The notes: a model not told the origin generated them from the sequence alone. A DNA stretch of 64,000 bases from an uncultured Ellagibacter sp. (GCF_934617235.1 NZ_CAKTTZ010000007.1:4983-68982); one strand, 5' to 3'; counted from the first letter of the stretch, positions 4,032-23,258 are shown. Translations and numbers: made by a program.

Positions 4032-4071
4032 GTGTTATTGTATACTGTTCATGACACAAAACCTGACACAA
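4032..4071 (+). promoter_or_regulatory. TA promoter/operator region
   Basis: TATACT at 4041-4046, TGACACAA direct repeats at 4052 and 4064, inverted GTGTTA at 4032; GGAGG RBS follows. Confidence 0.5.
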
Positions 4072-4087
4072 CGGAGGTTTTGCCCAC

Positions 4088-4713: not shown

Positions 4714-4811
4714 GTTTATTCGTTTAACAGTACGACTTCTCGAGATTCTCAAGGACGTCCGATACCGTCAGCGTGTAGTTGTCTACGTCTGAAATCCCTG
4801 TGCGGTTCCCC

Positions 4812-5282
4812 TTAGCCCTCTTCACCGACGAAGCGATAGTCCTCCCATCCTTCGTTGGCGGAAATACGCTCGAAGAGCTCTTTGACCGACTCTCGCACCG
4901 CCGGGGTAAGCGGTGCGAAAAAGGTCGTATCAGCTGGTTGAATACCGAGGAACACGACGCGTTTTGCCATGCTCTCGATTTCACCCAGCAAAAAGGTGAT
5001 GGGAAGCGCGTGCGTCGAGATCAGGCAGTTCGTCGCGACGTCACCGGCGCTGAGATTGCGAACGGCGCCTGGCGGAAGGCCCATGTCGGCGGCATCGAAC
5101 ACGAGAACCGTGTCAGGCTCAAGCCGCCTGATCACGCCCAACTCGTCTTCGGGACACTGCCCGCCGTCGATCACCGACCAGCCATCAACCGGCGAGTCGG
5201 TCATCATCTTGGCCAAAAGCGGCCCTGCGGCATCATCGCCGCGGAGCACGCTGCCAACCGCCAAAAGCACGTTACTGCCCAT
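4812..5282 (-). CDS. hycI: Hydrogenase maturation peptidase
   Basis: VGSVLRGDDAAG, DGGQCPE, DAADMG, STHALP motifs; last gene of the hydrogenase operon. Confidence 0.92.
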   Translation of the reverse strand: MGSNVLLAVGSVLRGDDAAGPLLAKMMTDSPVDGWSVIDGGQCPEDELGVIRRLEPDTVLVFDAADMGLPPGAVRNLSAGDVATNCLISTHALPITFLLGEIESMAKRVVFLGIQPADTTFFAPLTPAVRESVKELFERISANEGWEDYRFVGEEG

Positions 5283-5706
5283 CGGTCAATCTCCCCATCA
5301 TGTACATTGCGGTCTGGGTCCTTACTTCCTCAAGAAGATCGAGGAATTGGGTGAGCCACGTAATCTCGCCCGCATAGAGCTTCGACGTTTTCTGAAGGTA
5401 GAGTGATTGGAGCTCCTTCTTCAACGCTTTGCTCAAAGTGGGCACGTGCACCTTGTCGATCTGTATCTCCCCGAAGCGCATGATGCCCTCGAGCTTGTAG
5501 CGGGCCTCGGCCGAATCGAGGTGAGACACAATCGAGCGATAGGTGTCCATCGAGCAGGACAAACACGGGCTCAAGCAATCAGCCACGCCCGTGTGATGCC
5601 CGACAGAAAGCGTGTAGTACATGATGTTGCTAACCTCTTCGGGGATGTCGACCGCGCTATCGACAAACTTAGCTGTTAGACGGTAGAACACTACTTTCTT
5701 TTCCAT
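5272..5706 (-). CDS. hycH: Formate hydrogenlyase maturation protein HycH/HyfJ
   Basis: VFYRLTAKFVD, YYTLSVGHHTGVADC, KLEGIMRFGEIQID motifs. Confidence 0.88.
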   Translation of the reverse strand: MEKKVVFYRLTAKFVDSAVDIPEEVSNIMYYTLSVGHHTGVADCLSPCLSCSMDTYRSIVSHLDSAEARYKLEGIMRFGEIQIDKVHVPTLSKALKKELQSLYLQKTSKLYAGEITWLTQFLDLLEEVRTQTAMYMMGRLTDGQ

Positions 5707-6496
5707 GCCCGTCCCCTATCGTCCTCGCCAACAAGATACCCTTGAGTTCCTCGTAGACTTCAGCTCGACGCGGATCGTCTTGCGTAGCGATCAGGTCGTT
5801 GACGCTCAATAGAACATCGTCGCTGTGCTCGAGGGCCCCCATGAATCCGTCGACAAGATCTCTGCCGTATCGGTAACCCGACATCCTGCGAGCTTCTCGT
5901 TCAAGTTCCACGCGGAGCTTGTAGGGAATATCGGGAAAAGCGATGGGGGCAACTTCCCCTTCGCCCTCGAAGTGATGAGTGGCATGCTGCTTCTGAGCCA
6001 ACTTGCCAAGCGCCATCGCGAAACCGTACACCGTCTGGCCCGGTGTCGGAGGACAGCCCGGAATGTAGACGTCCACCGGCAAGAGCTTGTCGGTTCCGCC
6101 CCACACGCAATAGTTGTCGTGGAAGATTCCGCCCGTGCATCCGCAGGCACCGTACGAAACGATGATCTTCGGATCAGGAGCAGCATCATAAGCCCTGATG
6201 GCAGGCATGCGCATGGAACGAGTGATCGCGCCCGTGTAAACCAGGATGTCCGCATGACGCGGCGTCGGAACAACCTTGATACCGAATCGCTCGACGTCGA
6301 ACACGGGGGTGATGCTCGCGAAAATCTCGATTTCGCACGCATTGCATCCGCTGCAGTCAACGCGATACACATATACCGAGCGCTTGATGTCGCTGAGCAG
6401 CTTTCCCTTCGCCTTCGCGACTTCGGCATCAACAACCTTGCGATCAAGGCGCACCTGAAGCTCTTCCGGAATCTCTTTCATAACCATAAAACTCAC
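5669..6496 (-). CDS. hyfI: Group 4a [NiFe]-hydrogenase small subunit (HycG/HyfI)
   Basis: RVDCSGCNACEIE, PRHADIL, GACGCTGG, VDVYIPGCPP. Confidence 0.92.
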   Translation of the reverse strand: MSFMVMKEIPEELQVRLDRKVVDAEVAKAKGKLLSDIKRSVYVYRVDCSGCNACEIEIFASITPVFDVERFGIKVVPTPRHADILVYTGAITRSMRMPAIRAYDAAPDPKIIVSYGACGCTGGIFHDNYCVWGGTDKLLPVDVYIPGCPPTPGQTVYGFAMALGKLAQKQHATHHFEGEGEVAPIAFPDIPYKLRVELEREARRMSGYRYGRDLVDGFMGALEHSDDVLLSVNDLIATQDDPRRAEVYEELKGILLARTIGDGHGKESSVLPSNS

Positions 6497-7011
6497 TTCC
6501 TTTCAAGCTTCACGCCCTGCATATCGAGGGTATGCTTCCGTTTACAATCGAGGCAAACGCCCACGTTTTCGTAAGCTGCACCGTCGTTGCCGATACGCTC
6601 GAGCAACGCGGCTGCGTACTCGACCTCCTTACGAGGGGCGAAGTACTGGCCGCACTCGGAGCATCTCTGCAGTTTGAAGGTGCAGGTATCGGTCAGGTCG
6701 TCTTTCGACATGACGGCGAGTTCGAATTCGGGCGTCAGCTTGATTGCGCCAGTCGGGCACCTTTCCTCACAGCGGCCGCAGAAAATGCAGCGCCCGTAAT
6801 TGATGCTCCAAACGATGGTGCCCTCTTCGGTATCGGCGTCCATCTGAATCGCGTTCGGAGGACATACTGCGGCGCATGCTGCGCACGCAATGCACAACTC
6901 ATGCGTGTGCTCGGGCTTTCCTCGCACATCTTTCGCCTGCTCAAGCGGGGCAAAAGGGTATTTCACCGTGCCTTCGCCCTGTTGCAGGATGTGCTTAAGC
7001 ATCTTTAGCAT
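6493..7011 (-). CDS. hyfH: FHL Fe-S subunit (HycF/HyfH)
   Basis: TVKYPF, CIACAACAAVCP, CIFCGRCEERCP plus a C-terminal CxxC pair. Confidence 0.9.
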   Translation of the reverse strand: MLKMLKHILQQGEGTVKYPFAPLEQAKDVRGKPEHTHELCIACAACAAVCPPNAIQMDADTEEGTIVWSINYGRCIFCGRCEERCPTGAIKLTPEFELAVMSKDDLTDTCTFKLQRCSECGQYFAPRKEVEYAAALLERIGNDGAAYENVGVCLDCKRKHTLDMQGVKLERK

Positions 7012-7026
7012 TCGGCCCTCCTTTCC

Positions 7027-8760
7027 TTAACGAACGACAAGCTCATTCATATCGCGCTTCCTGCAGCTGTCCTCGAACTCCTGTTTCGAGAGGACCTTCT
7101 GCTTGCGCTTCTTCACATCGACGATGGTGACGCGATCGGTGCACGAGTAACACGGGTCGATGCTGCCGATGACAACAGCGGCGTCGGCGATAGTATTCCC
7201 GCGAAGCATCGATCGGAGCACCGGCCAGTTGCTGTACGTCGAGGCCTTAGCGCGCCAGCGATAGCACTTCTGGTTGTCGCCCGTCATCGACCAATGCAGG
7301 TCCTCACCGCGCGGCGCCTCGGTGAAGCCAACGCCGAAGAGGTAGGGCTCATAGCTCCACGATTCGTTGAGAATGGGGCCAGTTGGTGCGCTTTCCAGCC
7401 AGAACTCGATCATATCGATGCTGTCGAAGAACTCGTCGACGCGCACGAGCGTACGGCTTTTCGCATCGCAGCCGTCATACGTACGCGCAGTCTTGTCAGT
7501 CAAGAGCTTATAGCCGTCGAACGGGTGGTCGAATCGCGAATCGCGGGTAAAGCCGCTTCCGCGAACCGTTGGACCGACGGGGCTCCAGTCGCGGGCGACC
7601 TGCTTGTCGAGGATGCCGATGCCAGCCGTACGCTGCTCGAAGTTAGCCGTCGACACGAGCGCATCGAGGAGATGCCTCACTTCCTCGCGCAGCTCGTGCA
7701 GAACCTTGATGGTCTCGAGCTTCTGTTCAGCGAGGATGTCGCGACGAACACCGCCGATAAGGTTCATGCCATAGGTTTTGCGAGCACCAGTCAAAAGCTC
7801 GGCAAGGTCCATCGCCTTCTCGCGGATGCGGAAGAAATGCATGAAGCCCGTGTCAAAGCCAGTGAAATGGCAGACAAGGCCGAGATTGAGCAGATGGGAA
7901 TGCAGACGCTCGACCTCAAGCATGATCGACCTGATAACCTGAGCGCGGAGCGGAATCTCGATTCCCATGGCATGCTCCACCGACTCGGAGTAGGCAACCG
8001 AGTGGGCAAAGCCGCAAATGCCGCAGATGCGATCGGCCAAAAACGGGACACCGTCGTAGGTCATGCGCGATTCGGCAACCTTTTCCATACCGCGATGCAC
8101 ATAAAACATGCGATAGTCGGCGTCGACGATGTTTTCGCCCTCGACGAACAGCCTGAAGTGACCAGGTTCGTCGGAGGTGATATGCAACGGGCCCATAGGG
8201 ATGGTGGTTGTCGAACCCTCAGGAGCGTCGTTCAAGAACTCGTAGTTCTCAAGATCGGTCGTCGTGTTGGGCCGGTGGCGGTAATCCATGGAGTCCTTGC
8301 GCAGCGGATAGAGCCCCTCCGGCCAATCGTCAGGAAGCACCAATCTACGGGGGTCAGGAAGCCCGATAGGAGTCAGGCCGAACATGTCGCGAACCTCGCG
8401 TTCACCCCACATGCAGGCAGGAACGCGCGCCGCCACCGAAGGGAACGTGCCCGGATCGGGATCGACCTCGCTTCGAACAACGAGAATACACGGGTCGGTT
8501 TCTTCCATCGAAAGGACGTAGTAGAGCGCATACTTGCCATTGATGGGACGCTCGTCGTTGCCTACGACAACAGAGAGCCAACCGCCACGGCGATAGTAGA
8601 GATGCTGCACAATATCGGGAGTAGAATCAGCGCGAACCGTAAGGGTGAGCTGCTCATCTGTTTGCCACGTGCTATCAAGCAAAGCACCATGGAAGCGCCG
8701 CTGGACAAATTCGACATGCGACTTACCGCATTTCGATTTGTTGGAACTTTTCTTGCTCAC
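7027..8760 (-). CDS. hyfG: Group 4a [NiFe]-hydrogenase large subunit (HycE/HyfG)
   Basis: GPLHITSDEPGHFRL, RICGICGFAH and DPCYSCTDR Ni-binding motifs, C-terminal extension; GTG start with GGAGG. Confidence 0.95.
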   Translation of the reverse strand: MSKKSSNKSKCGKSHVEFVQRRFHGALLDSTWQTDEQLTLTVRADSTPDIVQHLYYRRGGWLSVVVGNDERPINGKYALYYVLSMEETDPCILVVRSEVDPDPGTFPSVAARVPACMWGEREVRDMFGLTPIGLPDPRRLVLPDDWPEGLYPLRKDSMDYRHRPNTTTDLENYEFLNDAPEGSTTTIPMGPLHITSDEPGHFRLFVEGENIVDADYRMFYVHRGMEKVAESRMTYDGVPFLADRICGICGFAHSVAYSESVEHAMGIEIPLRAQVIRSIMLEVERLHSHLLNLGLVCHFTGFDTGFMHFFRIREKAMDLAELLTGARKTYGMNLIGGVRRDILAEQKLETIKVLHELREEVRHLLDALVSTANFEQRTAGIGILDKQVARDWSPVGPTVRGSGFTRDSRFDHPFDGYKLLTDKTARTYDGCDAKSRTLVRVDEFFDSIDMIEFWLESAPTGPILNESWSYEPYLFGVGFTEAPRGEDLHWSMTGDNQKCYRWRAKASTYSNWPVLRSMLRGNTIADAAVVIGSIDPCYSCTDRVTIVDVKKRKQKVLSKQEFEDSCRKRDMNELVVR

Positions 8761-8769
8761 TTTGGCCTC

Positions 8770-10346
8770 CTACTCTCCGATAGTCCAAGTCACGTCGGAC
8801 GCATTGAAGATACTGTCAAATAGCGCCGCACCAGGTAAGTTACTTTCGCTGGAGATGTCGTCCTGCAACACGATTTCGGTTGCCGAACCGACACCGGAAA
8901 CGACGGGTGCTGGGAGCGCAACGCCAAACCACAAGATAAGAGCCACCAGCGCAAACTCGGGAATGAGCGTGAGCGCCTTAGGCTCACCGCGCTTTAAGCC
9001 TTCAGGGGCTTCGCCCAAAATCGAGCGGAGGAACACAATCGAGAAGGCGCCCACCACAACGGTGAGGGCAAGCGCGATGATGATGATCAACCACATGAAG
9101 CCCGAGGACGCGGCAGCCACGAACGCCAGCATCTCGCTTGTGAAAAGCGCCAGCGGCGGGAATCCCGAAATGGCGAAAAGCCCAATTCCGACAAGAACGG
9201 CAGTGACGGGAGCAACCTTCACCACGCCCTTGATCTGCCCCAGATCGCTCGTCTTGAACTTCATGGCGAGATTGCCCGACATGCAGAACATAAGCGACTT
9301 TACGAGGCTGTGGAACACGCAATGCAGAAGCGCGGCTGCAACACCGATGGGGCCGCCCAGGCCAAGGCAGAGGGCAACGATGCCGATGTTCTCGCACGAG
9401 CTGTAAGCCAGCTTGCGTTTGAAGTCGGACTGCAAAAGAAGAGCAAAGGCTCCGAAGACGATCGAGGCTGCTCCGAAGATCAGCATGATGGCCTGCGGAA
9501 ACGCCGGCCCGATAGCCTGAACGGCCAGCACATAGAACCTGATGACGACAAGGATTGCGCACTTGGCGAGCGCCCCTGAAAGCAGACCCGAAACGGGGCT
9601 TGGAGCCTGCGAGTACGCATCGGGCATCCATGTATGCATCGGGAACAAGCCGGCCTTGGTACCGAAACCGATCGCGATGAACACGAAGGCGATCTGGATC
9701 AAAGCGGGGTCGAATTGACCAGCGTATGGCACGAGCGTCGACCAGAATGCCGCCTGATGCGGATTGGCCATGACGTCCGCTGCGTTCGCGTACACCAAGA
9801 GCGTTCCGTACAGGCCGAAAGCAACTCCGGCAGTGCAGACGATGAGATACTTCCATGCCGCCTCAAGCGAGATCTTCGTGTTGTACGTTCCGACGAGAAA
9901 TACCGTAGCAAGCGTCGTACCCTCGATAGAAGCCCACATCATGATAAGGTTGTTCGATGTGGCAACAAGCAGCATCGTGAAGACGAACAGGCTGAACAGC
10001 GCGTAGAAACGCTTGATTTGCTTAGCTCCGACATTCCCCTCGTCCGCGTCGTAGCGGATATGGGAAAGGGAAGCGACACCTGTAAGCAAAGCTACCGCAC
10101 ACACGATACCGACGAAGATGGAAGAGAGTGCATCGACATGAAGCCACAGGTCAAACGCGTGGACCTCTTCCCCACCGAGCACCACCGTACCAACAACGCC
10201 AGCACCGAAGACAAGCACGGCGATCAAGCACATGATTGGATCGCCTCGAACAAACCCCGAGGCGCAATGGCGGGAATCACCGCCATGAGCAGGCACGACG
10301 CCAACGGCGTTGCCAGCATGAGCAATACCAATAATGAAGCGTCCAT
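8770..10346 (-). pseudogene. hyfF: HyfF antiporter-like membrane subunit with apparent 1-bp frameshift near 10236
   Basis: ATG 10346 gives hydrophobic MDASLLVLLMLATPLASCLLMAVIPAIAPRGLFEAIQSCA* (TGA 10224-10226); the HyfF body (LEAAWKY, GFGTKAGLFPMHTWMPDA, KRKLAYSSCEN) is in another frame; span 1577 bp is not a multiple of 3. Confidence 0.78.
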
Positions 10347-10349
10347 AAC

Positions 10350-11000
10350 CTATCCCTTCAATTCCATTAAGTCGTTCGCGTCAAGAGAGTTGGTTTTGCG
10401 GAAAATCTGCCTAACCACAAGCGCCATAACAAGCACGGCGAAGATGGCATCAGTCGCGATGCCGATTTCCACCAACTCTGGCGCATGCGGTGCCAACAAG
10501 GCCAACGTAACGTGAGAGCCGTTCTCCATCAGGCAGTAACCGAAAATCTGCTTGATGATGTTGCGCTGCGAGATGATGCACGTCAGGCCGATGAAGAAGT
10601 GTGCGAGCGAAATCGCGAGCGCGGGCTTGACCTCTGCAGCCGTATACAGGTCCACATGCTTGACCGCCGCAAAGCACACCAGTACCTCAATCGCGATGAT
10701 TGCGATGCTTCGCGCGGGTGAAATCTTATTTTCGACTTCACCGGATTCCCCAAGCTTTTTAATGGTATAGAGCAAGATGCTCGGCACGAGAACGACCTTC
10801 GTAACGAATGCCGAGGCTGACCAAACAAACAGCTCGCTCGAATCCGTTGCGAAGCCAAGAGAGAGCAGCAGCAATACGAGAACAAACGATTGAAGCATGT
10901 AGAGCAAAGCGGATTTCTTGGCCGTTCTCGCGAGAACCACGACCGTCGATGTGACGATCAGCAAACCGCCTAAAATATTAACCAGCGTAAATCCTGTCAT
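10350..11000 (-). CDS. hyfE: Hydrogenase-4 membrane subunit E
   Basis: Hydrophobic; QRNIIKQIFGYCLMENGSHVTLAL, PELVEIGIATDAIF; ATG 11000 with AAGGAGG. Confidence 0.9.
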   Translation of the reverse strand: MTGFTLVNILGGLLIVTSTVVVLARTAKKSALLYMLQSFVLVLLLLSLGFATDSSELFVWSASAFVTKVVLVPSILLYTIKKLGESGEVENKISPARSIAIIAIEVLVCFAAVKHVDLYTAAEVKPALAISLAHFFIGLTCIISQRNIIKQIFGYCLMENGSHVTLALLAPHAPELVEIGIATDAIFAVLVMALVVRQIFRKTNSLDANDLMELKG

Positions 11001-11010
11001 GAGATCCTCC

Positions 11011-12468
11011 TTAATTGAGCCACGCGATGGCCACGAAACCCGAGCACACAATCAGGATGATCAGCACGATGAACACGCCGGCCATTGCCTTCGGAAGCGG
11101 GCGCGCCTCCGCAACAGTCTCGGAGGGCTCTCCGGGAAGTGTCGAGCCCATCCATTTCAAGAACCAGGCGAACGAGCAAATCGACTCGATGATGGCTACG
11201 ACAACGATGATCATGAGCGGGATGTTGCCGACAGCCGTCTCGAATCCGCCTGCCAGGATCGCGAACTTGCTGAAGAAGAGGCCGAAAGGAGGAACGCCAC
11301 CGATAGCAAGCGCCGCAACCGCAAAGGAGACCGCGATAAGTGGCGCTTTCTTCCACAAGCCGCGGATATCCGTGAGCATGCGCGTGCCCATGCAGTAGCT
11401 CAATGCACCGGCAACCAGGAAGAAAAGGATCTTCGCGAACGCATGGTTGAAGATATGGGCAATGCCGCCCTCGAGAGCCAGTTCGGAACCGAAGATTGCG
11501 AAACCGAAGCCGAGGAACATATAAGACAGCTGAGCGATGGTCGAGAACGCCAGGAGGCGCTTGATATCCTTCTGCGGAAGATACATCGAGAAGGCGAAGA
11601 CCATCGTCACGATGGCGCCCACAACGACAATCCATCCGATCACCGGGTCCACGGGACCTGCGCATATGAGAGCGCGCGCGAAGATGTAAACGCCGACTTT
11701 AACCATGGATGCACCGTGCAAGTAAGCAGAAACCGGCGTCGGCGCATTCATAGCGGAAGGCAGCCACATGTAGAACGACAGCTGAGCAGATTTGCCCCAA
11801 GCGGCAATGAGGATGCCGATCACGACAGCCGTCTTCCATCCACCTTCAAGCTGCGCGATGGCAGCAAGATCGAAGGTACCCGTCTGCATAAACAGAACCG
11901 CAGTGGCGCAGTACAGACCAAGGGAGGCTAGATGCGTGATAATCAGCGCCTTCATAGCCGCCTTCTGGGAAGCTGGCGTGTTGTAGTAGCCGATCAACGA
12001 CCAGGAGCAGGCGCCGGTGATCTCGAAAAACACGAGCTGACCCAAAATAGTGGAGCTGAACACGACGCCCGCCATCGCACCGATGAAGGCGCAGAAAACG
12101 GCATAGAAGCGCTTGCGGTGCTTGTCAGGGTGCTCCTTGTTTCCCTCATTGAGGTAAGCGGTAGCGTAAATCGTCACCAGCATGCCGATGCCAACAAACG
12201 CCGTCGCAAGAAGGGAGCTCACGCGATCGACCGTGAGTCCGAATATCGTGACCGAGTCTAGGTGCAACAGCGGAGTCGTCGCGCCTTCCATGCCGTTCAC
12301 CCAACATGATTGCATGCTGAACAGGCAGAAAAGAAGCGATATCGCGGAGGCCACAACGCACAGCCAGCGTGTCGCGGGACGTGGCGATATCAAGATCAGC
12401 AGCATCCCGATGAACGGAACCAAGATGGCCAACGCTGGAACGAGCGTTGAAATAAAGCCGATAGTCAT
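11011..12468 (-). CDS. hyfD: Hydrogenase-4 antiporter-like subunit D
   Basis: FFEITGACSWSLIGYY, AAWGKSAQL, WLPSAMNAPTPVSAYLHGASMVKVGVY, KRLLAFSTIAQL. Confidence 0.92.
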   Translation of the reverse strand: MTIGFISTLVPALAILVPFIGMLLILISPRPATRWLCVVASAISLLFCLFSMQSCWVNGMEGATTPLLHLDSVTIFGLTVDRVSSLLATAFVGIGMLVTIYATAYLNEGNKEHPDKHRKRFYAVFCAFIGAMAGVVFSSTILGQLVFFEITGACSWSLIGYYNTPASQKAAMKALIITHLASLGLYCATAVLFMQTGTFDLAAIAQLEGGWKTAVVIGILIAAWGKSAQLSFYMWLPSAMNAPTPVSAYLHGASMVKVGVYIFARALICAGPVDPVIGWIVVVGAIVTMVFAFSMYLPQKDIKRLLAFSTIAQLSYMFLGFGFAIFGSELALEGGIAHIFNHAFAKILFFLVAGALSYCMGTRMLTDIRGLWKKAPLIAVSFAVAALAIGGVPPFGLFFSKFAILAGGFETAVGNIPLMIIVVVAIIESICSFAWFLKWMGSTLPGEPSETVAEARPLPKAMAGVFIVLIILIVCSGFVAIAWLN

Positions 12469-12483
12469 CTTCAGACCTCCTTT

Positions 12484-13413
12484 CTACACACCGACGATGA
12501 GGAACACGAACGACAGAGCAGAGCAGCCGACGATCATCCAGGTGTTGCGGGAAAGACTGTTGAAACGTGTACGCATAACCGTGTTCTCGATCACGGCGCA
12601 AATAAGGAAAACGATCGTGAGCTTGATATAGAGCCAGATAGTCCCAAACACCAACGCGGGCAGCGTGAGCTCGGCCGCGTTTCCAAACGGAACGAACAAC
12701 GACACGAACAAGCCGGCCATGAGCATCTGTTTGAGCGTCATCGCGACCTTGAGGATTGCCAAGGACGGACCAGAGTACTCCGCGAGCGGGCCTTCCTGGA
12801 TTTCCTGTTCAGCTTCCGCCATGTCGAAGGGCAGCTTGCCCAGCTCGACGTAACAGCATGCCGCCATGGCGCAACCTGCAATGACGATAGCTACCGGGGT
12901 GTCGATGGCGAATGCGCGCACAGCGGTGCACATGTCGCCTAAGTTGGACATACCGGTCGAAAGCGCCACCGTGAACAGGGCAAGGATGATTGCGGGTTCG
13001 ATAAGCGCACTCACGAGCAGCTCACGGATGCCGCCGACACTCGGGTAGGCGCCTGAGGAATCGACCGACGATAGCGCGAAGAAGAAGCGCGGCAGGACGA
13101 GCAGGTAGACGACAAGGATGAAGTCGCCCAGGAGCGGGATGGGGCTTTGCAGGGTGACAAGCGGAATCGCAGCGCCTAAAAGCAAAACCGTAGCCAGAAA
13201 CAGTATCGGCATAATTCGGTACGGCAAGCCCGAATTCTCCGTACGAAGGTCCTCGCGCTTGAAGAGCTTGACCAGGTCATAGTAATCCTGCAGGATGCTC
13301 GGGCCCTTACGTCCGTGCATCTTCGCACGCAAAACGCGGCTGAAGCCGGAGAACAAAGGCGCCAATACGAGAAGCAGCAGAGGTTGGAGAATCGCCAAGA
13401 AAATTTCGTTCAT
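12484..13413 (-). CDS. hyfC: Hydrogenase membrane subunit HyfC/HycD (NuoH-like)
   Basis: RKGPSILQDYYDLVKL, GKLPFDMAEAEQEIQEGPLAEYSG. Confidence 0.92.
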   Translation of the reverse strand: MNEIFLAILQPLLLLVLAPLFSGFSRVLRAKMHGRKGPSILQDYYDLVKLFKREDLRTENSGLPYRIMPILFLATVLLLGAAIPLVTLQSPIPLLGDFILVVYLLVLPRFFFALSSVDSSGAYPSVGGIRELLVSALIEPAIILALFTVALSTGMSNLGDMCTAVRAFAIDTPVAIVIAGCAMAACCYVELGKLPFDMAEAEQEIQEGPLAEYSGPSLAILKVAMTLKQMLMAGLFVSLFVPFGNAAELTLPALVFGTIWLYIKLTIVFLICAVIENTVMRTRFNSLSRNTWMIVGCSALSFVFLIVGV

Positions 13414-13423
13414 GATGCACCAC

Positions 13424-15445: not shown

Positions 15446-16029
15446 AACCTCCGCTCATTCCAGGAGTCCAGCATCATCACCTCGCTGGCATTTGCGCTCA
15501 TGACGTTGCGATAGCGGGTTTCGCGATTGATTTCCTCGTCGGTGACGAGTTTAAGCGCGCCAGACAAGCAATTTGCAACACATTGGGGTTTACCAGCGGC
15601 CCCTGTGCAGAGGTCGCATTTAACAGCGATGGGAGAAACGCCAATTTCCCAAGTAATAAGGGGGCTTTGCCCCGCCGGGGCGGCGGGCGTCTTGTACATA
15701 ACGCCCGCTACACCTGAAACCGGAGTTCCCGAAGGCTCTATCGCCCCATAGGGGCAAGCGATGGCGCATAATTTGCAGCCTATGCAACGCTGTTCATCCG
15801 TGCGAACCACGCCATCTTCAGCCTTGAGTGCTTCCACGGGACACACATTTACACAAGGGGCATCATCGCAGTGGTGGCATGTCACCACCGTGGATATGCC
15901 TCTGTTCGAAACGAAAATCAGTCGATGGCGCCGCTGCATCCCGGCCCTGCGATGGCTGCTTGCGCACGCCGCTTCGCATGTCTTGCAGCCAATGCACTTA
16001 TCGGGATCGACAGCAATATATGAACTCAT
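15442..16029 (-). CDS. hyfA: Multi-[4Fe-4S] electron transfer subunit HyfA/HycB
   Basis: CIGCKTCEAAC, CHHCDDAPC..CP, CIGCKLCAIACP, KCDLC. Confidence 0.88.
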   Translation of the reverse strand: MSSYIAVDPDKCIGCKTCEAACASSHRRAGMQRRHRLIFVSNRGISTVVTCHHCDDAPCVNVCPVEALKAEDGVVRTDEQRCIGCKLCAIACPYGAIEPSGTPVSGVAGVMYKTPAAPAGQSPLITWEIGVSPIAVKCDLCTGAAGKPQCVANCLSGALKLVTDEEINRETRYRNVMSANASEVMMLDSWNERRL

Positions 16030-16071
16030 GGGCGCCTCCTTTCTCTGAATAGTCGGCAGCCGTGAGAATCC

Positions 16072-18234
16072 TTATGCCGAATACTGATGAGCCGCCTCTC
16101 GAGCCAGATGCGCCTTCATTTCCGCGTAAAGCTTCTCAGCGTGCTGTTCGGCCCAAACCTGATCTTCGATTTGGGCAACCTGGCATGCAGAGAACTTGTC
16201 TTCGGGGGTGCCCGAAAGAGGGTCGGTGGCGTGCAGCGTCAAATCATTGCACTTGCCGATCCACCACTGATAGGTCATATAGACGGTACCGGGGTTAATG
16301 CGCTCATCAACCGCTGCGCGCGTGATGACCTTGCCGCGACGCGAGTAAACCCAAACAAGATCGCCGTCCTTGATGTTGCGCTCGTCTGCGTCCTTGGGGT
16401 TGATCTGCACGAAGCCCGGTTCGTCAGCAAGCTGCGCCAGCGTTTTGCAGTTGCCGGTCATCGAGCGGCAGGAGTAGTGGCCAACCTCGCGAACGGTACA
16501 AAGAATCAGCGGGTAGCCGTCATCGGGAAGCTCGGTCGGCTCAATCCATTCGTGAGTCATGAGCTTTGCCTTCTGGTTCGGCGTATTGAACTTGCCGCCA
16601 AGGTAAAGGTCGGGAGTACCCGGATGCTCAATGGTGGGAATCGGCCACTGGGCATGACCGAGGCCTTCCATCTTCTCGTAGGTTGCGCCATAAAACAGCG
16701 GGCACAGCTCGCGAACCTCGTCCCAAATCTCTTTCGTGTTGCGATAGCGCATCGGGTAGCCCATACGCGTCGAAAGCTCCTGGAAAATCTCCCAATCGTG
16801 CTTGCATTCGCCCTTCGGGGGCACCGCTGCCGTGAAGCGCTGGAAGGTACGGTCGGATGCGGTGAAGACGCCCTCGTGCTCACCCCAAGAGGTGCCGGGC
16901 AACACGACGTCTGCCATCGCGGTCGTCTGCGTCATGAAGATATCCTGGCTGATGAGGAAGTCGATGTTCTCGAGCGTTTCCTTCATGTCGGCAGAATCGG
17001 GCTCGGTCTGCAGCGGGTCTTCGCCGAAGTTGTAGAAGGCACGGATTTTCTTTTCCTTAACGCCATGCGGAAGGTCGGTAAGCTTCGCACCCTCTTTAAG
17101 GGAGAGTCGCTCGGGCGGAAGGTTCCAAGCTTTCGCGAATTTCTCGCGGATAGCAGGGTCGGTAACTTTTTGGTAGCCCGGATACAGGCTCGGCCACATG
17201 CCCATGTCGCAGCTGCCCTGCACGTTGTTCTGGCCACGAACAGGCGCGACGCCGCAATGCGGGCGCGCAATCTGACCGGCAACGCAGGCGAGCGATGCAA
17301 TTGCGTGAACAGTATGGACGCCCTGACGCTGCTGCGTAACGCCCATGCCCCAGCCGAGGATCGCCGTATCGGCAGTTGCATAGATACGCGCGGCTTCGCG
17401 AATATCATCAGCATCGACACCGCAAATCTCAGCGGAATACTCGGGGGTATAGCGCACAACAACCTCGAGCCACTCCTCGAATCCCTCGGTATGGGCGTCA
17501 ATGAACGCCCTATCTTCGAGACCTTCCTTAATGATGACATTTGCCATGGCGTTAAGGAAAGCGAGGTTTGAGCCGTTGTTGATCTGCAAGTGAATATCGG
17601 CGATGCGCGCAGTCTCGATAACGCGAGGGTCGACGACGATGATTTTAGCGCCGCGCTCGCGGGCCTTGACGATGCGGCTCGCAACAATAGGATGGCTGGC
17701 GGCGGGATTATAGCCGATGAGCATGATGCAGTCTGCTTCCTCCATGCCTGGAATGGAAACGCTCATCGCACCGCTACCAAGCGTGTCGATAAGGCCGATA
17801 ACCGACGGGCCGTGGCACGTGCGTGCGCAGTTGTCGATGTTGTTAGTGCCGATGCAAGCGCGCGTGAACTTCTGCATCACATAGTTCGCCTCATTGCCCG
17901 GGCCGCGAGACGAGCCGGTAAGCAAAATCGAATCAGGCCCGTACTGCGCCTTGATTTCCATAAGGCGGCGCGCGGTGAAGTCGAGCGCTTCATCCCACGT
18001 AACGCGCTCGAGCTCGCCGCCCTTTTCGCGGCGAATCATGGGATGCAGGATTCGAGGCGTCAGAATCTTCGTGTCATTGATGAAATCGAATCCGCACAAG
18101 CCCTTAAGGCAAAGATTGCCTTCGTTGGTGATGCCGTTAAGCGGCTCGGCATCGACAACCATTCCGTTCTCGACAACCAGGTTCAACTTGCAGCCCGCAC
18201 CGCAGTACGGGCAAACTGCCATATGTTTTTCCAT
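16072..18234 (-). CDS. fdhF: Formate dehydrogenase H catalytic subunit, cysteine-type
   Basis: CPYCGAGC..LCLKG, NNIDNCARTCHGPS (TGC codon at the Sec position), VRGQNNVQGSCDMG; no Tat signal; ATG 18234. Confidence 0.93.
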   Translation of the reverse strand: MEKHMAVCPYCGAGCKLNLVVENGMVVDAEPLNGITNEGNLCLKGLCGFDFINDTKILTPRILHPMIRREKGGELERVTWDEALDFTARRLMEIKAQYGPDSILLTGSSRGPGNEANYVMQKFTRACIGTNNIDNCARTCHGPSVIGLIDTLGSGAMSVSIPGMEEADCIMLIGYNPAASHPIVASRIVKARERGAKIIVVDPRVIETARIADIHLQINNGSNLAFLNAMANVIIKEGLEDRAFIDAHTEGFEEWLEVVVRYTPEYSAEICGVDADDIREAARIYATADTAILGWGMGVTQQRQGVHTVHAIASLACVAGQIARPHCGVAPVRGQNNVQGSCDMGMWPSLYPGYQKVTDPAIREKFAKAWNLPPERLSLKEGAKLTDLPHGVKEKKIRAFYNFGEDPLQTEPDSADMKETLENIDFLISQDIFMTQTTAMADVVLPGTSWGEHEGVFTASDRTFQRFTAAVPPKGECKHDWEIFQELSTRMGYPMRYRNTKEIWDEVRELCPLFYGATYEKMEGLGHAQWPIPTIEHPGTPDLYLGGKFNTPNQKAKLMTHEWIEPTELPDDGYPLILCTVREVGHYSCRSMTGNCKTLAQLADEPGFVQINPKDADERNIKDGDLVWVYSRRGKVITRAAVDERINPGTVYMTYQWWIGKCNDLTLHATDPLSGTPEDKFSACQVAQIEDQVWAEQHAEKLYAEMKAHLAREAAHQYSA

Positions 18235-18263
18235 GAGAAACCCCTTACTAGCAAGTGTTGACT

Positions 18264-18794
18264 TCACGAATGCACATGCGATTCAGCGGACATTGCTGCG
18301 TGGACGCGCTTTTCTTTTGCCAAGTTGTCCAGATAATCCTGGTCGACGAGCATCAAGCCGTTTGTCAGACATGCGGTTACACAAGCAGGGCCTTCCGGTC
18401 GTTCAGCGCAAAGGTCGCACTTGATTACAACGGGAGCCCAACCGCAATTGACCTCGAGGTTGCCAAGGCGTCTCGTTTTGATCCTCGACTTGATCGAAAT
18501 CGCTCCAAACGGGCAAGCGAGTACGCAGTTGTGGCAACCGATACACTTCTCCTCGTGAACCCCTACTCGATTTTCGTCAGAGTACAAACAACCTGTCGGA
18601 CAAGATTTGACACAGGGAGCATCAACACAGTGATGGCAGGTGATCGGCGTTGATACTCTCAACGTGCTGACGAACTGCAAACGCGGCTCCCCGGGTCCTC
18701 CTGGAGCATCGTGAGCCTGAAGACACGCCGCAAGGCATGTCTTGCACCCAATGCACCTGTCAGGGTTTGCTGCAACGAATTTCCTTGCGTTCAT
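18264..18794 (-). CDS. hydN: HydN-like Fe-S electron transport protein
   Basis: FVAANPDRCIGCKTCLAAC, CHHCVDAPC, CIGCHNCVLACPFG, KCDLCAERPEGPACV; immediately upstream of fdhF. Confidence 0.8.
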   Translation of the reverse strand: MNARKFVAANPDRCIGCKTCLAACLQAHDAPGGPGEPRLQFVSTLRVSTPITCHHCVDAPCVKSCPTGCLYSDENRVGVHEEKCIGCHNCVLACPFGAISIKSRIKTRRLGNLEVNCGWAPVVIKCDLCAERPEGPACVTACLTNGLMLVDQDYLDNLAKEKRVHAAMSAESHVHS

Positions 18795-19087
18795 TCATTT
18801 TCCTTCCCCCCATTATTTGCTGATTTTCCGCGCAGTATTTGCCCCAAAGACGACTGGCAAATCACAAGAAATTCGATTTTTGTTTTACGCGTAATGAAAC
18901 TATACCGACCGAAATTTAAGCTTGTCAATTTAGTGAACAGTCGCTCGATAAGCGAGGGGTAAATCACGGTAGTCGGAGCAGATTCCCAGGTCAACTATGG
19001 TGTCTTACGCTTTTACGCGCCTGATTTCCAATGCTGTGCCCCGATTGCCCAATCACCGTTGAAAGAAGAAATATGGCATTGTAGTTT

Positions 19088-19105
19088 GTATCATATTTGT
19101 AATAC
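19088..19105. promoter_or_regulatory. Candidate palindromic operator upstream of FHL operon
   Basis: GTATCATATTTGTAATAC; 15/18 identical to the site at 21142-21159. Confidence 0.55.
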
Positions 19106-19320
19106 CGATAATTCTATTTCCCAAGTTGAGAGCGATACGAGATGCTAAATTCGGAAGATTTCCAAGTAAAAATCAGCTGATTACTCTGTCGTTTCATTAA
19201 ATTTGAACAAGTGAGTTAATTGGAATCAAATATCCCAAAAATAGGACATGTAATTTCACTCATTTTTGACTTGCATTCCCAATTATTCGGTAGAAGGCAC
19301 CGAGACAAGGGGCACTGCAC

Positions 19321-19386
19321 AAAAATAGCCTCCTGAGTATTTTGGAATAAGCGAGCTTCGTGCTCTTCCTTAACACCCAGGAGGCG
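19321..19386 (-). terminator. Long-hairpin terminator after the tig-like gene
   Basis: Minus strand GCCTCCTGGGTGTT...AATACTCAGGAGGC stem followed by TATTTTT. Confidence 0.7.
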
Positions 19387-19411
19387 ACTCTGTATAACTA
19401 GAAACTATTTG

Positions 19412-20725
19412 CTAACCCTCGATATGAATGATCGCATGCTCCGTGACGTAATCGTTTGCCTTCAGACGCATCGCAGAAAGACGCGCTTCGGGCATTTTGC
19501 CGTTTCTCTCGAAATCAAGACGGATCATTGCTTCAAGACCCGGCGATGCGGCGGCACGGAAATACTCGTTCAAGTCGTCATCGGTAAGCTCGAGATTGAA
19601 GTGCTCGGCAACGGAATCAAGTGCGAACTGACGGACCAGCTGCTCGTGCACCTGACCATTTAAATGGCGCTTGAGCTGCTGTTCTGTGACTCCCTGAGCA
19701 CGAAGGAAGTCTTCCTTGGTCATATTCTGCTCCGCAAGCTGATCTTCAAAGGCGACAAGAACGTCGGCAGTCACCGCATCATAAATCGCGTCGGAAATCT
19801 CGCCCTCGAACCGCTCGGCAAGTGCCTTTGCGCTCTGGAGATTCTTAAAATGACGGTACTCCACGGTTTTTCTGTCGGAAATCATACCGCGGATCTTCTC
19901 GCGCAATTCAGCGACACTTGATGCCTCACCTTGCATATTCTCGACAATCCACTCGTCGTCGATCGTCGGGATAATAGTCTTTTGCAGGCTTTTAACGGTA
20001 ACGGTCGAAACGTAGTGGTCCATCTCGGGCTGATTGTTTTCATCAAGCGTGAAACCCGGGGAAGAGTATTCGACTTCCTTGGTCTCCCCTACATGCATGG
20101 ACATAATTGCTTGGTCGAATTCCTCAGGCATCATATCGGCTCCCGTCGTATAGGAGCGGCCCTCAGAGCAAAGCTGATCGCAGCGCACCCCATCACGGAA
20201 GGTTTCGATCTCAAGTTCGACCTGGTCACCTTCGCGGATATCGGAATGACTCGCGTCCTCTTCCACGAAAGCATGGCTCTGAGCAAGTTGCGCCAGGTAG
20301 TTGTCGATATCCGCTTCGGTAACCACGAGAGGCGGAACGGTAATCTCGACGGGATCGTAAGAAGAAAGAGAGAAGCTCGGCTTCAGGACGCAGATAGCGT
20401 CGAAGACGAAAGGCGTATCGCGCTTGACGGTCTCCTTAATCTCGAACTGAGGTTTACCTATATATACGATGCCCTGCCCCTCTGCCGCGAAAGGAAACGA
20501 ATAGTGCGTAATAGAAGTGTTGAGATTCTCAAACACAGCCTCTCGCCCCAAACGGGCAATAGCAGCATCTTCAAGTTCCTGACCTTCTTCAGGGGTGATG
20601 TTGCTCTGATAAGCGAGGGCGATCAAGAACTGATCGATAAGCGTATTCGTATCGTTTGCCGGGATGGTGATGTGCAAACGCGAGCGGTCCTCGTCCACGC
20701 GCTCCAGACTTGCCTGCAGTTCCAT
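19412..20725 (-). CDS. Trigger factor-like chaperone paralogue
   Basis: 437 aa, acidic; VTEADIDNYL, FKBP-like GDQVELE..MPEEFDQAIMSMHVGETKEV, IPTIDDEW..SVAELREKIR; no GFRxGxxP loop. Confidence 0.8.
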   Translation of the reverse strand: MELQASLERVDEDRSRLHITIPANDTNTLIDQFLIALAYQSNITPEEGQELEDAAIARLGREAVFENLNTSITHYSFPFAAEGQGIVYIGKPQFEIKETVKRDTPFVFDAICVLKPSFSLSSYDPVEITVPPLVVTEADIDNYLAQLAQSHAFVEEDASHSDIREGDQVELEIETFRDGVRCDQLCSEGRSYTTGADMMPEEFDQAIMSMHVGETKEVEYSSPGFTLDENNQPEMDHYVSTVTVKSLQKTIIPTIDDEWIVENMQGEASSVAELREKIRGMISDRKTVEYRHFKNLQSAKALAERFEGEISDAIYDAVTADVLVAFEDQLAEQNMTKEDFLRAQGVTEQQLKRHLNGQVHEQLVRQFALDSVAEHFNLELTDDDLNEYFRAAASPGLEAMIRLDFERNGKMPEARLSAMRLKANDYVTEHAIIHIEG

Positions 20726-21141
20726 GGCTGCACCTCTTTCTATGCATAGGTATGCATGAACGATCTTGCCTGTTCAAACGAGCAGACAAGAGAAGAATGA
20801 ATGTGCCATCGGATGCATATCGCATAGAGTGATATCGCTTTTATCAGTATAGCATCACTACACGGTTTTCAGCCATTAGGACCACGCAGAGACGGGTAAT
20901 GAGTGAGGCCAGCGTTCTAGCGAGTTACCTCAATAAGGCACTTTTACGAGCATAACGAGGGAGTTAACCGCTTACAACAGATTTATTTATGTCCATTTGC
21001 CGAAAAAATAATTAATCCCAAAAAAATATTTGGACTTTTTTCGACTGGTTATAGCAAAGCAAATTATCACGAGGTCAAGCGTCCCAAAATCATGACTAGC
21101 AAGCCGAATTCAAAAGAAATTCGCATGTCATTTCAAAAAAT

Positions 21142-21159
21142 GTATCATAAATATAATAC
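21142..21159. promoter_or_regulatory. Candidate palindromic operator upstream of amiS-amiF
   Basis: GTATCATAAATATAATAC, near-perfect palindrome, matches the site at 19088-19105. Confidence 0.55.
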
Positions 21160-21303
21160 TGGAAAAATGAGACGAAATAACTCAAAGTACCTGCTTAAGC
21201 CAACCATTCGTAATAACGAAATACTCAGTATTTATGGCCCTCAACTGGTATTTTGCAAATCTCATATCTTTGCTTCCAGCTCTACCCTCTTAGCGAACCT
21301 CGC

Positions 21304-21332
21304 TTGACATTATTTGCGATCCACGAAATGAT
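21304..21332 (+). promoter_or_regulatory. Putative sigma70 promoter for amiS-amiF
   Basis: Perfect TTGACA at 21304-21309, weak -10 AATGAT at 17-bp spacing. Confidence 0.45.
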
Positions 21333-21413
21333 GATGGTGCATCGGATGCACGCTTCAGGAAATCGCAAACTTACAGGTGTAAGTTTCAACGAAACTTAGG
21401 GGGTGTTTTTCGA

Positions 21414-21950
21414 ATGACTTTGGGGTTAGGGCTTCTCTACGTCGGTTGCGTTCTGTTCATGAACGGCATCGGAACTTTGCAAAAATGGGATAGCAAAGCG
21501 ATGGCGGTGATGAACTTCTTCACGGGTGGATTGCTCGTTGTAATCAACACCGTGAACATCGCCTTCACCGTCGTCACCATGGGCGCTGCAGGTATTACTG
21601 CAGATCTCTACCCTGTCGCAACCAACATGCTCTTCGGTTTTACGTACTTGTTCGTCGGAGCCACCAATGCATTCAAGCTGAATGGAAGGCCGCTCGCTTG
21701 GTACTGCTTCTTCGTTGCAGTCAACACCATTCCTTGTGCGTATCTTTCGTTTGTCGCCAACGATCCAATCTTCGGCATCATCTGGATCATCTGGGGTACG
21801 TTGTGGTTGGCTTATTGGTTCGCTGGCGCCGAGATGAAGGTCACGCTTGGACCAAAATTCATCGGCTGGTACACGGTTGTTGTTGGCGTCATTACCTGCT
21901 GGCTCCCGGGCTATATGATGCTCGCGAACTGGTGGCAGCTCCTTTACTAA
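21414..21950 (+). CDS. AmiS/UreI-family amide/urea channel
   Basis: LGLGLLYVGCVLFMNG start, MLFGFTYL, LAWYCFFVA, IWIIWGTLW, TCWLPGY; about 6 TM segments. Confidence 0.92.
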   Translation: MTLGLGLLYVGCVLFMNGIGTLQKWDSKAMAVMNFFTGGLLVVINTVNIAFTVVTMGAAGITADLYPVATNMLFGFTYLFVGATNAFKLNGRPLAWYCFFVAVNTIPCAYLSFVANDPIFGIIWIIWGTLWLAYWFAGAEMKVTLGPKFIGWYTVVVGVITCWLPGYMMLANWWQLLY

Positions 21951-22082
21951 GTAAGGGGAGCGATTTTTTCTAGGTAGAAGCAGGATTCAGGGAGGTTTCC
22001 TGTTTCTCATAAAGGGACGGAGCAACGGCTTCGTCAAGCCAAAAGGTGAAGCGGAAACTTCACCAGACAGGAGGACAGAATT

Positions 22083-23087
22083 ATGGGTAGCAGCGGTAGC
22101 ATGAATAAGCCGGAAAATGGTTTCTTGTGCGCACTCATCCAGTTCCCCGTGCCGATCGTCAACTCCCGGGCTGACATCGACAAGCAGATCGAGAGCATCA
22201 TTCGTACGCTTCATGCGACGAAGGCCGGTTATCCGGGTCTCGAGCTCATCGTCTTCCCCGAGTACTCCACTCAGGGTCTGAACACTGCTAAATGGCTGAC
22301 CGAGGAATTCCTCTGCGACGTTCCTGGTCCCGAGACCGACGCATTCGGCAAGGCCTGCAAGGAAGCTGGCGTTTACGGCGTCTTCTCCATCATGGAGCGC
22401 AACCCCGATCCGAACAAGAACCCCTACAACACGGCAATCATTATCGACCCGAACGGCGAGATTTGCCTGAAGTATCGTAAGCTCTTCCCGTGGAACCCAA
22501 TCGAGCCTTGGTATCCTGGCGACCTCGGCATGCCCGTCTGCGACGGCCCCGCCGGCTCCAAGCTTGCTGTCTGCATCTGCCACGACGGCATGATTCCTGA
22601 GCTCGCTCGCGAAGCTGCCTACAAGGGCTGCAACGTCTACATCCGCATCTCCGGTTACTCCACCCAGGTTAACGAGCAGTGGATCCTCACCAACCGCTCG
22701 AACGCATGGCACAACCTCATGTACACCTTGGCTGTCAACCTTGCTGGTTACGACAACGTGTTCTACTACTTCGGCGAAGGCCAGATCACGAACTACGACG
22801 GCACCGTCCTCGTTCAGGGTCATCGCAATCCTTGGGAAATCGTCACCGGCGAAGTCTTCCCGCACCTCGCAGACCAGGCACGTCGTTGCTGGGGCCTCGA
22901 GAACAACATCTACAACCTTGGCCACCGCGGTTACGTCGCTCTCCCCGGCGGCGAGCCCGATGCGGGTCTCACCTGGGTCAAGGATCTTGCTGCTGGCAAG
23001 TACTGCCTGCCTTGGGAAGACGAGATGGAAATCAAGGACGGAACCATCTACGGTTACCCGACCACTGGCGGTCGCTTCGGCAAGTAA
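22083..23087 (+). CDS. amiF: Formamidase (nitrilase superfamily)
   Basis: 334 aa; FPEYS (E60), YRKLFPW, ICHDG catalytic triad with the formamidase-type CHD; C-terminus [12 protein letters not shown] as recalled for H. pylori AmiF; AGGAGG RBS. Confidence 0.96.
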
Positions 23088-23163
23088 GCTAGCAAAGACG
23101 CCTATACTTCAGTGTTCCCCTCACTTAAGTACGGTTCTTAAAGCAGCTTAAAGACCACGCACC

Positions 23164-23203
23164 GAACCCCGCTCTGACAGATGTCAGAGCGGGGTTCATT
23201 TTT
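23164..23203 (+). terminator. Intrinsic terminator of amiF
   Basis: Perfect inverted repeat GAACCCCGCTCTGACA/TGTCAGAGCGGGGTTC then ATTTTT. Confidence 0.9.
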
Positions 23204-23258
23204 GCTTTTACGAGCTCATTTTGCAAGCAAAACGCGCGATGCACAAATGAGCTCCAGA

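Follow-up and report, generated by a model that had tools for sequence, protein, structure and literature searches.

Formate hydrogenlyases (FHLs) are usually seen either as a way to dispose of formate from fermentation or as enzymes that use formate supplied from outside. A 64,000-nt stretch of DNA from an uncultured Ellagibacter sp. (NZ_CAKTTZ010000007.1:4983-68982), called the window here and used for the numbering of all positions, raises the question of whether an FHL can also be supplied from an amide. Within it, a gut lineage island unites an AmiS amide channel, a formamidase and a complete FHL, and this gene content points to a route, so far undescribed, that would turn formamide into ammonia, CO2 and H2. 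A first-pass annotation of the window knew of no description of the linkage, and we likewise found none in a full-text literature search, the coverage of which excludes most subscription journals. The matches from that search concerned kynurenine formamidase, fluorescence in situ hybridization (FISH) buffers or Helicobacter pylori, and within this coverage none of them ties a formamidase to an FHL.

Genes of the amide and hydrogenlyase arms

The island was originally described as an amiS-amiF pair divergent from hydN-fdhF-hyfA..I-hycH-hycI, with a tig-like gene in between. A map of open reading frames (ORFs) combined with profile scans recovered this arrangement at the same coordinates. The genes of the two arms, and the gene between them, are as follows.

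4812-5282, minus strand: hycI, maturation protease (TIGR00142, 119 bits, just under the cut-off of 119.1)
5272-5706, minus strand: hycH (NF011664, 149 bits; cut-off, 145)
5669-6496, minus strand: hyfI, small subunit (profile match)
6493-7011, minus strand: hyfH, 2x[4Fe-4S] protein (profile match)
7027-8760, minus strand: hyfG, [NiFe] large subunit (profile match)
8770-10296, minus strand: hyfF (NF005044, 594 bits, just under the cut-off of 610)
10350-11051, minus strand: hyfE (NF008556, 281 bits; cut-off, 136)
11011-12468, minus strand: hyfD (NF005097, 622 bits; cut-off, 430)
12484-13413, minus strand: hyfC (PF00146, 177 bits)
13424-15445, minus strand: hyfB (NF005086, 672 bits; cut-off, 667)
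15442-16029, minus strand: hyfA (profile match)
16072-18267, minus strand: fdhF, FdhH-type formate dehydrogenase (TIGR01591, 857 bits; cut-off, 666)
18264-18794, minus strand: hydN (profile match)
19412-20725, minus strand: tig-like trigger-factor paralogue, 437 residues (Trigger_N and Trigger_C domains only)
21414-21950, plus strand: amiS, AmiS/UreI-family amide channel (PF02293, 171 bits against 25; residues 3-172 of 178)
22083-23087, plus strand: amiF, formamidase (NF009803, 610.4 bits; cut-off, 406)
23164-23197, plus strand: terminator hairpin of amiF (perfect, 16+16 nt, with a T-run)

All 13 FHL genes (hydN-fdhF-hyfABCDEFGHI-hycH-hycI, from 18794 down to 4812) are intact in the source genome (G000, approximately 95% complete). 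The large and small hydrogenase subunits matched PF00374, PF00346 and PF01058, and in HyfG the two CxxC pairs that serve as nickel-iron ligands are retained (residues 246-249 and 537-540). Three antiporter-like subunits (HyfB, HyfD and HyfF) are encoded together with HyfE, which assigns the complex to the Hyf type of group 4a, unlike the Hyc type. FdhF could be aligned end to end with Escherichia coli FdhH (1AA6; E-value, 5.7e-283), with a cysteine at the position of E. coli selenocysteine 140, and the island fdhF was the sole formate dehydrogenase match above the cut-off in the source genome. This genome also has approximately 35 places with 24-31% identity to FdhF; they encode molybdopterin oxidoreductase paralogues, and a single contig (C22) accounts for seven.

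The enzyme of the amide arm is of the AmiF type, and the AmiE model gave only 244 bits on the same protein (cut-off, 427). A full-length alignment of this protein to H. pylori AmiF (2DYU) gave approximately 86% identity and an E-value of 3.9e-208. Residues E60, K133, W137 and C166 are invariant among the 17 sequences aligned. Three of these, E60, K133 and C166 (H. pylori numbering), form the catalytic Glu-Lys-Cys triad. Given this identity to a characterized enzyme and the intact active site, AmiF is predicted with high confidence to hydrolyse formamide to formate and ammonia. An ORF of 209 codons directly after amiF (orf209, 23181-23810, plus strand) was rejected as spurious, having neither a family nor relatives.

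AmiS aligned with H. pylori UreI (3UX4) at an E-value of 3e-28, with much shorter periplasmic loops. The alignment is interrupted at UreI residues 54-79, and there are deletions in the second loop. The acid-gating residues of UreI sit in the periplasmic loops. By this comparison, AmiS looks like an ungated channel of the AmiS type and not like the acid-gated UreI subtype. Gene content was further searched with profiles in five amiF-bearing genomes, the source genome included, four of which are 95-100% complete. Urease was found in none of the five, and AmiS is therefore assigned as the AmiS-type partner of AmiF; a role as a urease-linked urea channel was rejected on the same ground.

These features bear on the possibility that the chemistry of the module serves pH homeostasis. 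The ammonia released by AmiF and the protons used by the FHL would both raise cytoplasmic pH, and energy or nitrogen would not be the selected benefit. H. pylori AmiF and urease, as well as the acid-induced FHL of E. coli, are parallels for such acid protection, and it is favored by the approximately 86% identity of AmiF to the H. pylori enzyme and by the membership of the channel in the UreI family. However, AmiS lacks most of the UreI periplasmic loop sequence, the island encodes no acid-response regulator and the hosts have no urease. Protection from acid appears quite unlikely to be what has been selected.

Genes of formate metabolism were examined in the same five genomes. The FocA/NirC family (PF01226) was absent from all of them (0/5), which extends to whole genomes the first-pass remark that the block has no FocA-type channel, and neither pyruvate formate-lyase above the cut-off nor urocanase was found (each 0/5). 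Formamide is a by-product of histidine breakdown via formimidoylglutamase and of cyanide detoxification. An endogenous supply from histidine was rejected on account of the missing urocanase; with no pyruvate formate-lyase and no urocanase, neither fermentation formate nor histidine-derived formamide is therefore expected. Formate-tetrahydrofolate (THF) ligase is present in the source genome and in four of the five genomes overall. Since there is no FocA and the sole fdhF is that of the island, formate made by AmiF would have two evident sinks, the FHL and formate-THF ligase, and no evident export. Elsewhere in the source genome, hypD and a full-length large subunit of an uptake-type [NiFe] hydrogenase were detected.

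The ligase leaves room for a reading in which the FHL operates chiefly in the reverse direction, reducing CO2 with H2, or serves only to exchange H2 and formate with neighboring organisms, and in which formate from AmiF would enter one-carbon metabolism through formate-THF ligase. Its occurrence in four of the five genomes is in line with this reading, and reversibility of the E. coli FHL has been published (PMC5061711). However, without a formate channel the cytoplasm would load with formate, and the gains and losses of amiF are coupled to those of the FHL (see below). We consider a mainly reversed FHL very improbable.

We instead lean towards the reading that the island encodes a formamide-to-formate-to-H2/CO2 module, and regard it as moderately probable that the FHL removes the formate made by AmiF and perhaps gains from doing so. 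AmiS would admit formamide, as judged from its family and its pairing with AmiF, and AmiF would convert the amide to formate and ammonia. The co-transferred FdhF-Hyf complex would then oxidize the trapped formate to CO2 and reduce protons to H2; it is proposed as the formate outlet because FocA, pyruvate formate-lyase and any second formate dehydrogenase are missing from the host. The net reaction would be HCONH2 + H2O -> NH3 + CO2 + H2, by which the cell would gain nitrogen, remove a toxic anion and consume two protons per formamide. More speculatively, the three antiporter-like subunits may move ions, and recapture of H2 by the uptake-type [NiFe] hydrogenase could conceivably feed the many respiratory reductases of the host.

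Distribution and history of the linkage

The conservation of the linkage was examined in 339 genomes of the Eggerthellaceae, from 64 genera, with HyfG as the marker of the FHL large subunit and HycH as a second marker. HyfG was found in 79/339 genomes and HycH in 78/339, and amiF in 7/339, from 5 of the 64 genera. In all seven amiF genomes, amiS-amiF lies beside a RelB antitoxin and PIN-like toxin pair (RelB/PIN), a tig paralogue and hydN-fdhF, with the two arms within 20 kb of each other. The complete hyf operon is present in six of the seven, and in the seventh (G186) it ends at the contig edge. An eighth case of the linkage was found on a metagenome contig from a close relative (L138). Within the Eggerthellaceae, amiF never occurs without FHL, and FHL occurs without amiF in 73 of the 79 genomes. 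The five amiF-holding genera comprise a further 22 genomes without amiF, all of which also lack FHL; in these genera, amiF and FHL were gained and lost together.

Three gene orders were observed (arrowheads give the direction of each gene).

Order A, in G134, G172, G224, G225 and G227: hydN>...hycI> (Fe-ADH> fdhD> in four of them) <tig <PIN <RelB amiS> amiF>
Order B, in the source genome and L138: <hycI...<hydN <tig amiS> amiF>, with RelB/PIN at the far end
Order C, in G186: <PIN <RelB amiS> amiF> tig> hydN> fdhF> to the contig end

The RelB/PIN pair is part of the island in 7/7 amiF genomes. In orders A and C it immediately precedes amiS, and in the source genome it occupies the far end; in one FHL-only genome (G260), RelB adjoins hydN. 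The three orders can be related by circular permutation together with inversion of amiS-amiF or of tig, and there are hints of a circular intermediate of the island.

The HyfG proteins of the six linked operons are 76-80% identical to that of the source, and the others 64-72%. These six group together as a single clade, supported at 100/100, in a maximum-likelihood tree built from 30 sequences. The seven genomes are thus not independent events, because their hosts are kin and their FHLs belong to one clade, and the raw count of 7/7 overstates the case; the conserved linkage is real but modest evidence for selection. Collectively, the linkage is real and clade-specific, and it has probably been selected. 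In the AmiF tree, the Eggerthellaceae sequences fall among those of gut Bacillota, away from other Coriobacteriia. A separate origin of the G186 amiF was considered and set aside, as this tree lacks resolution on the point (support of 20 for a single Eggerthellaceae group, in a polytomy).

To look beyond the family, the 80 closest amiF loci were taken with 10-kb flanks, one genome per species. Five are from Eggerthellaceae, and four of these carry AmiS, the Tig paralogue and FHL genes; the fifth is a 3.6-kb contig (L068) with the second amiF copy of G186. The other 75, which include loci from Helicobacter, Lachnospiraceae and Atopobiaceae, have no formate dehydrogenase or hydrogenase within 10 kb at an E-value of 1e-4. 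In the synteny comparison suggested in the first-pass annotation, the linkage holds within the Eggerthellaceae, in 7/7 cases, one of them cut by a contig end; outside the family, amiF and hyf are unlinked in 75/75 cases among these 80 loci.

The borders of the island and the remaining features within it are listed below.

3657-3753, minus strand: selenocysteine tRNA (tRNA-Sec), anticodon TCA, at the left edge of the island (Rfam RF01852, 70.6 bits; ARAGORN)
3765-23258, no strand: genomic island of approximately 19.5 kb, absent from same-genus genomes
4088-4354, plus strand: RelB antitoxin (TIGR02384, 64.7 bits)
4351-4713, plus strand: PIN-like toxin (the pair is 66-73% identical to RelB/PIN of G225, whose toxin matches Pfam PIN)
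4730-4828, minus strand: remnant of an iron-type alcohol dehydrogenase (Fe-ADH), 33 residues (tblastn with the G225 Fe-ADH, 58% identity; C7:9712-9810)

Nine genomes of the same genus were compared at this site. The tRNA-Sec is 95-98% conserved in all nine, and synteny at 79-88% identity extends over the left flank and, from position 23259 onward, over the right one. Between the flanks, the relatives carry other DNA, approximately 1 kb in G153 and G154 and 3.2 kb in G149, in place of the 19.5 kb seen here, and amiF, HycH and HyfG are each absent from all nine (0/9). G+C content ranges from 0.48 to 0.58 within the block, compared with 0.58-0.62 on either side of it. The lower-GC block noticed earlier thus corresponds to a discrete island. 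Its right border lies between the amiF terminator hairpin and 23259, where a minus-strand frame (23259-23999) encodes the gamma subunit of a 2-oxoacid:ferredoxin oxidoreductase, matched from about residue 74 and lying upstream of genes for the beta subunit and a VorB-like alpha subunit. No integrase was found among the island genes, and no flanking direct or border repeats were found at the island. RelB/PIN, FHL, tig and amiS-amiF entered, or survive in, the source lineage as one unit, and the island is a horizontally moving block. The tRNA-Sec beside it belongs to the host, and the island FdhF uses cysteine.

The spot between the tRNA-Sec and the 2-oxoacid oxidoreductase is hypervariable in the genus (L097, L098 and L099). 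To the left of the tRNA, a stretch of 864 bp in the relatives has shrunk to 64 bp in the source. A 351-residue ORF (2690-3745, minus strand) overlaps the tRNA-Sec at its start; it has no Pfam or NCBIfam match, and its DNA is 66-88% conserved in the genus. Inside the island, the short Fe-ADH fragment has an intact counterpart, together with fdhD, between hycI and tig in G224, G225, G227 and G172, and it marks the site of a deletion in which fdhD was lost as well.

The FHL-only genomes differ from the amiF-linked ones in the genes at the end of the operon. In 4/4 FHL-only loci inspected, from four genera, a CLC-family gene follows fdhD/hycI, at the following positions.

L131, 3338-4594: CLC-family gene
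L132, 7010-8266: CLC-family gene
L135, 3503-4837: CLC-family gene
L136, 6500-8404: CLC-family gene

Within the family, 20 of 25 CLC orthologues (E-value of 1e-60 or less) are located no more than 5 kb from hycH. The amiF-linked loci fetched contain no CLC gene, and the copy in G225 is on another contig. CLC on the one side and tig/RelB-PIN/amiS-amiF on the other may be read as swapped substrate-entry or charge-shunt modules. E. coli CLC exchangers serve extreme acid resistance, and the CLC-family gene beside FHL in FHL-only relatives is a point in favor of the acid protection considered above. Selenocysteine machinery was also seen beside FHL in FHL-only genomes: a SelB-like frame adjoins hydN in G145 (L133, 14028-17501), and in G087 a tRNA-Sec lies approximately 6 kb after hycI (L131, 7449-7545).

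Regulation, decay and the case for independent cargo

The trigger-factor paralogue between the two arms departs from canonical trigger factor in several respects. It scored 155 bits with TIGR00115, below the cut-off of 180, has no match to FKBP_C, the peptidyl-prolyl isomerase (PPIase) domain, and is missing the GFRxGxxP motif, the ribosome-binding signature of trigger factor. Two other paralogues in the source genome carry GFRKGKAP. Relatives of the island Tig at 58% identity or more were found only beside amiF, and the island copy of G186 is 37% identical. From these characteristics, it is most likely a dedicated, ribosome-independent chaperone of the amidase arm or of the module. Of the five trigger-factor paralogues in the source genome, three lack the ribosome-binding motif; the range in the family is 2-5 per genome.

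Two long A+T-rich spacers of 617 and 688 bp flank tig, and the following regulatory features were located in and around them.

18899-18928, minus strand: hydN promoter-like site, TTGACA, 18 nt, TATAGT (11/12 matches; TTGACA kept in 7/7 genomes)
20806-20816, no strand: palindrome CCATCGGATGC, preceded by a conserved TGnTATACT box and approximately 90 nt ahead of the start of tig
21304-21332, plus strand: amiS promoter, TTGACA, 17 nt, AATGAT (promoter-like match)
21339-21349, plus strand: palindrome GCATCGGATGC, right after the amiS promoter, conserved in position

In 6/7 amiF genomes, the amiS palindrome is found between -58 and -76 relative to the start of amiS, and the core GCATCCGATG before tig is also kept in 6/7. 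Because the palindrome is common to the amiS and tig promoters, tig belongs to the predicted amidase regulon. The FHL arm presumably would be switched on separately, perhaps by formate. A genome-wide regulon for the palindrome was rejected, with five exact copies in the genome against approximately 2.8 expected; with one mismatch allowed, six were observed in the window against 3.5 expected. The weight of the palindrome is in its positional conservation only. In Rfam searches, the window yielded only the tRNA-Sec at the gathering threshold, and nothing at an E-value of 1 or less was found in 18700-22100; therefore, no riboswitch accounts for the long spacers.

No regulator gene was found in the island. 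The first-pass annotation had noted the absence of fhlA/hyfR, and this extends to the source genome as a whole, in which no true sigma-54 activator was detected; the best PF00158 match there is a partial domain of 34.6 bits, and weak partial matches of this kind occur in 14/14 control genomes. A true sigma-54 activator domain lies approximately 6.6 kb upstream of hydN in G225 (C1:1385133-1385624) and none in its congener G224. Such an activator is not a conserved part of the module, because G224 is without one.

The metagenome contig L138 provides a view of recent change in the island. It carries the island at the same chromosomal site, with an AmiF 99% identical to that of the source. Ratios of nonsynonymous to synonymous substitution rates (dN/dS) between the two were as follows: fdhF (first 399 codons), 0.056; hydN, 0.099; tig, 0.021; amiS, 0.078; amiF, 0.023; and a flanking gene, 0.036. 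Both arms are under purifying selection in the source lineage. The synonymous rates (dS) against L138 are uneven (amiF, 0.17; amiS, 0.34; fdhF, 0.89; hydN, 1.17; tig, 2.09; flanking gene, 0.74), suggesting a mosaic history or a recent exchange of the amiS-amiF segment.

Several observations weigh against a strict functional bond between the two arms. First, formate-THF ligase offers AmiF formate an alternative sink. Second, the 75 amiF loci outside the family have no FHL partner nearby, and within the family, as read from the HyfG tree and gene orders, the linkage most likely had a single origin, after which it passed between genera and stayed intact through two or more rearrangements. Third, neither hyfG nor hycH was found in G186, in which only hydN and a partial fdhF precede the contig end; this assembly is 84% complete, and the island runs into the contig end. 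Fourth, hydN has a promoter of its own that lacks the amiS/tig palindrome, which gives no sign of common regulation of the two arms. Finally, fdhD was not found in the source genome by profile or tblastn searches, nor in 8/9 of its genus relatives, and L138 fdhF is cut after approximately residue 399 by a prophage (13633-21311), with amiS, amiF and tig intact. E. coli FdhF needs the FdhD sulfurtransferase for activity. The genes of the L138 prophage include those for an integrase, RusA, ERF, a DUF1351 protein and a CI-like repressor that contains an S24 peptidase domain. The loss of fdhD and the prophage lesions are probably recent.

These points are the basis for an explanation in which the arms are independent cargo: the FHL would handle external formate or H2, AmiS and AmiF would scavenge nitrogen, and the block would simply be inherited or transferred whole. 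Such hitch-hiking is in line with the single clade of linked FHLs, with separate promoters that have no operator in common, with the frequency of FHL without amiF in the family (73/79) and of amiF without FHL elsewhere (75/75 non-family loci among the 80 closest), and with lesions that strike the formate dehydrogenase arm (fdhD lost, L138 fdhF interrupted) and leave the amidase arm intact. However, the set has stayed joined through at least two rearrangements and three gene orders, and across divergence to 76-80% identity in HyfG and 37-67% in Tig. Moreover, no amiF of the family is found away from FHL, the hosts lack FocA and pyruvate formate-lyase, and fdhF is under purifying selection (dN/dS, 0.056). 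On this evidence, we judge it rather unlikely that the two arms travel together as unrelated cargo, and the formamide-to-H2 module remains our preferred reading.

Implications and comparison with known systems

If the preferred reading is true, formamide joins the substrates of microbial H2 production, and nitrogen scavenging becomes tied to the gut hydrogen economy. The island would also offer a compact, natural set of genes for H2 production from an inexpensive amide. The long-debated role of Hyf-type enzymes becomes testable in cultured isolates such as Raoultibacter massiliensis, and the amiS-amiF-linked and CLC-linked clades allow a comparison of how substrate reaches FHL enzymes. A bolder version, which we put forward tentatively and regard as unlikely in its entirety, would make formamide an energy and electron source for this clade of gut Eggerthellaceae. 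Here, the mobile island would turn formamide into NH3, CO2 and H2, ion translocation by Hyf and/or recapture of H2 would power respiratory reductases, Tig would act as a dedicated assembly chaperone, and in sister lineages CLC would take over the substrate-entry or charge-shunt part played here by AmiS/AmiF.

The closest counterparts are the FHL-only Eggerthellaceae (73 genomes), which have the same hydN-fdhF-hyfA-I-hycH-hycI operon at 64-72% HyfG identity, with fdhD downstream and sometimes an adjacent RelB. They differ in having a CLC gene in place of the tig, RelB/PIN and amiS-amiF of the island. The PceT-type trigger-factor paralogues, which are chaperones of reductive dehalogenases, resemble the island Tig in being stand-alone proteins without the ribosome-binding motif, encoded beside a presumed client; in contrast to the PceT type, no client with a Tat signal is evident in the island.

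For the amide arm, H. pylori AmiF (2DYU) and UreI (3UX4) have the same catalytic residues, approximately 86% AmiF identity and the same channel family as the island. However, H. pylori amiF adjoins neither a channel gene nor a hydrogenlyase in the loci fetched, and the island channel differs from UreI in its short periplasmic loops and in being paired with amiF instead of urease. The amiEBCRS genes of Pseudomonas aeruginosa likewise encode an AmiS channel together with an amidase of the nitrilase superfamily. Unlike that system, the island enzyme is of the formamide-specific AmiF type (610 bits) and not AmiE (244 bits), AmiC and AmiR are missing, and the pair is linked to FHL.

For the hydrogenlyase arm, the fdh2-mfh2-mnh2 cluster and formate transporter of Thermococcus onnurineus also combine a formate dehydrogenase and a substrate-entry gene with a membrane [NiFe] hydrogenase that includes antiporter modules, for formate that comes from outside fermentation. 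That cluster is archaeal, its hydrogenase is of another subgroup and its substrate is formate, whereas the island would use an amide precursor. The E. coli hyf operon (hydrogenase-4/FHL-2, hyfABCDEFGHIJ-hyfR-focB), taken together with fdhF, is like the island in HyfA-I, in HycH (the HyfJ equivalent), in its three antiporter-like subunits and FdhH-type enzyme, and in having a dedicated substrate-supply gene at the cluster end. In contrast to E. coli, the island has fdhF and hydN in the operon, includes hycI and encodes a cysteine FdhF. It is without the sigma-54 regulator and FocB; an amide channel and a formamidase hold the supply position, and the whole set is mobile.

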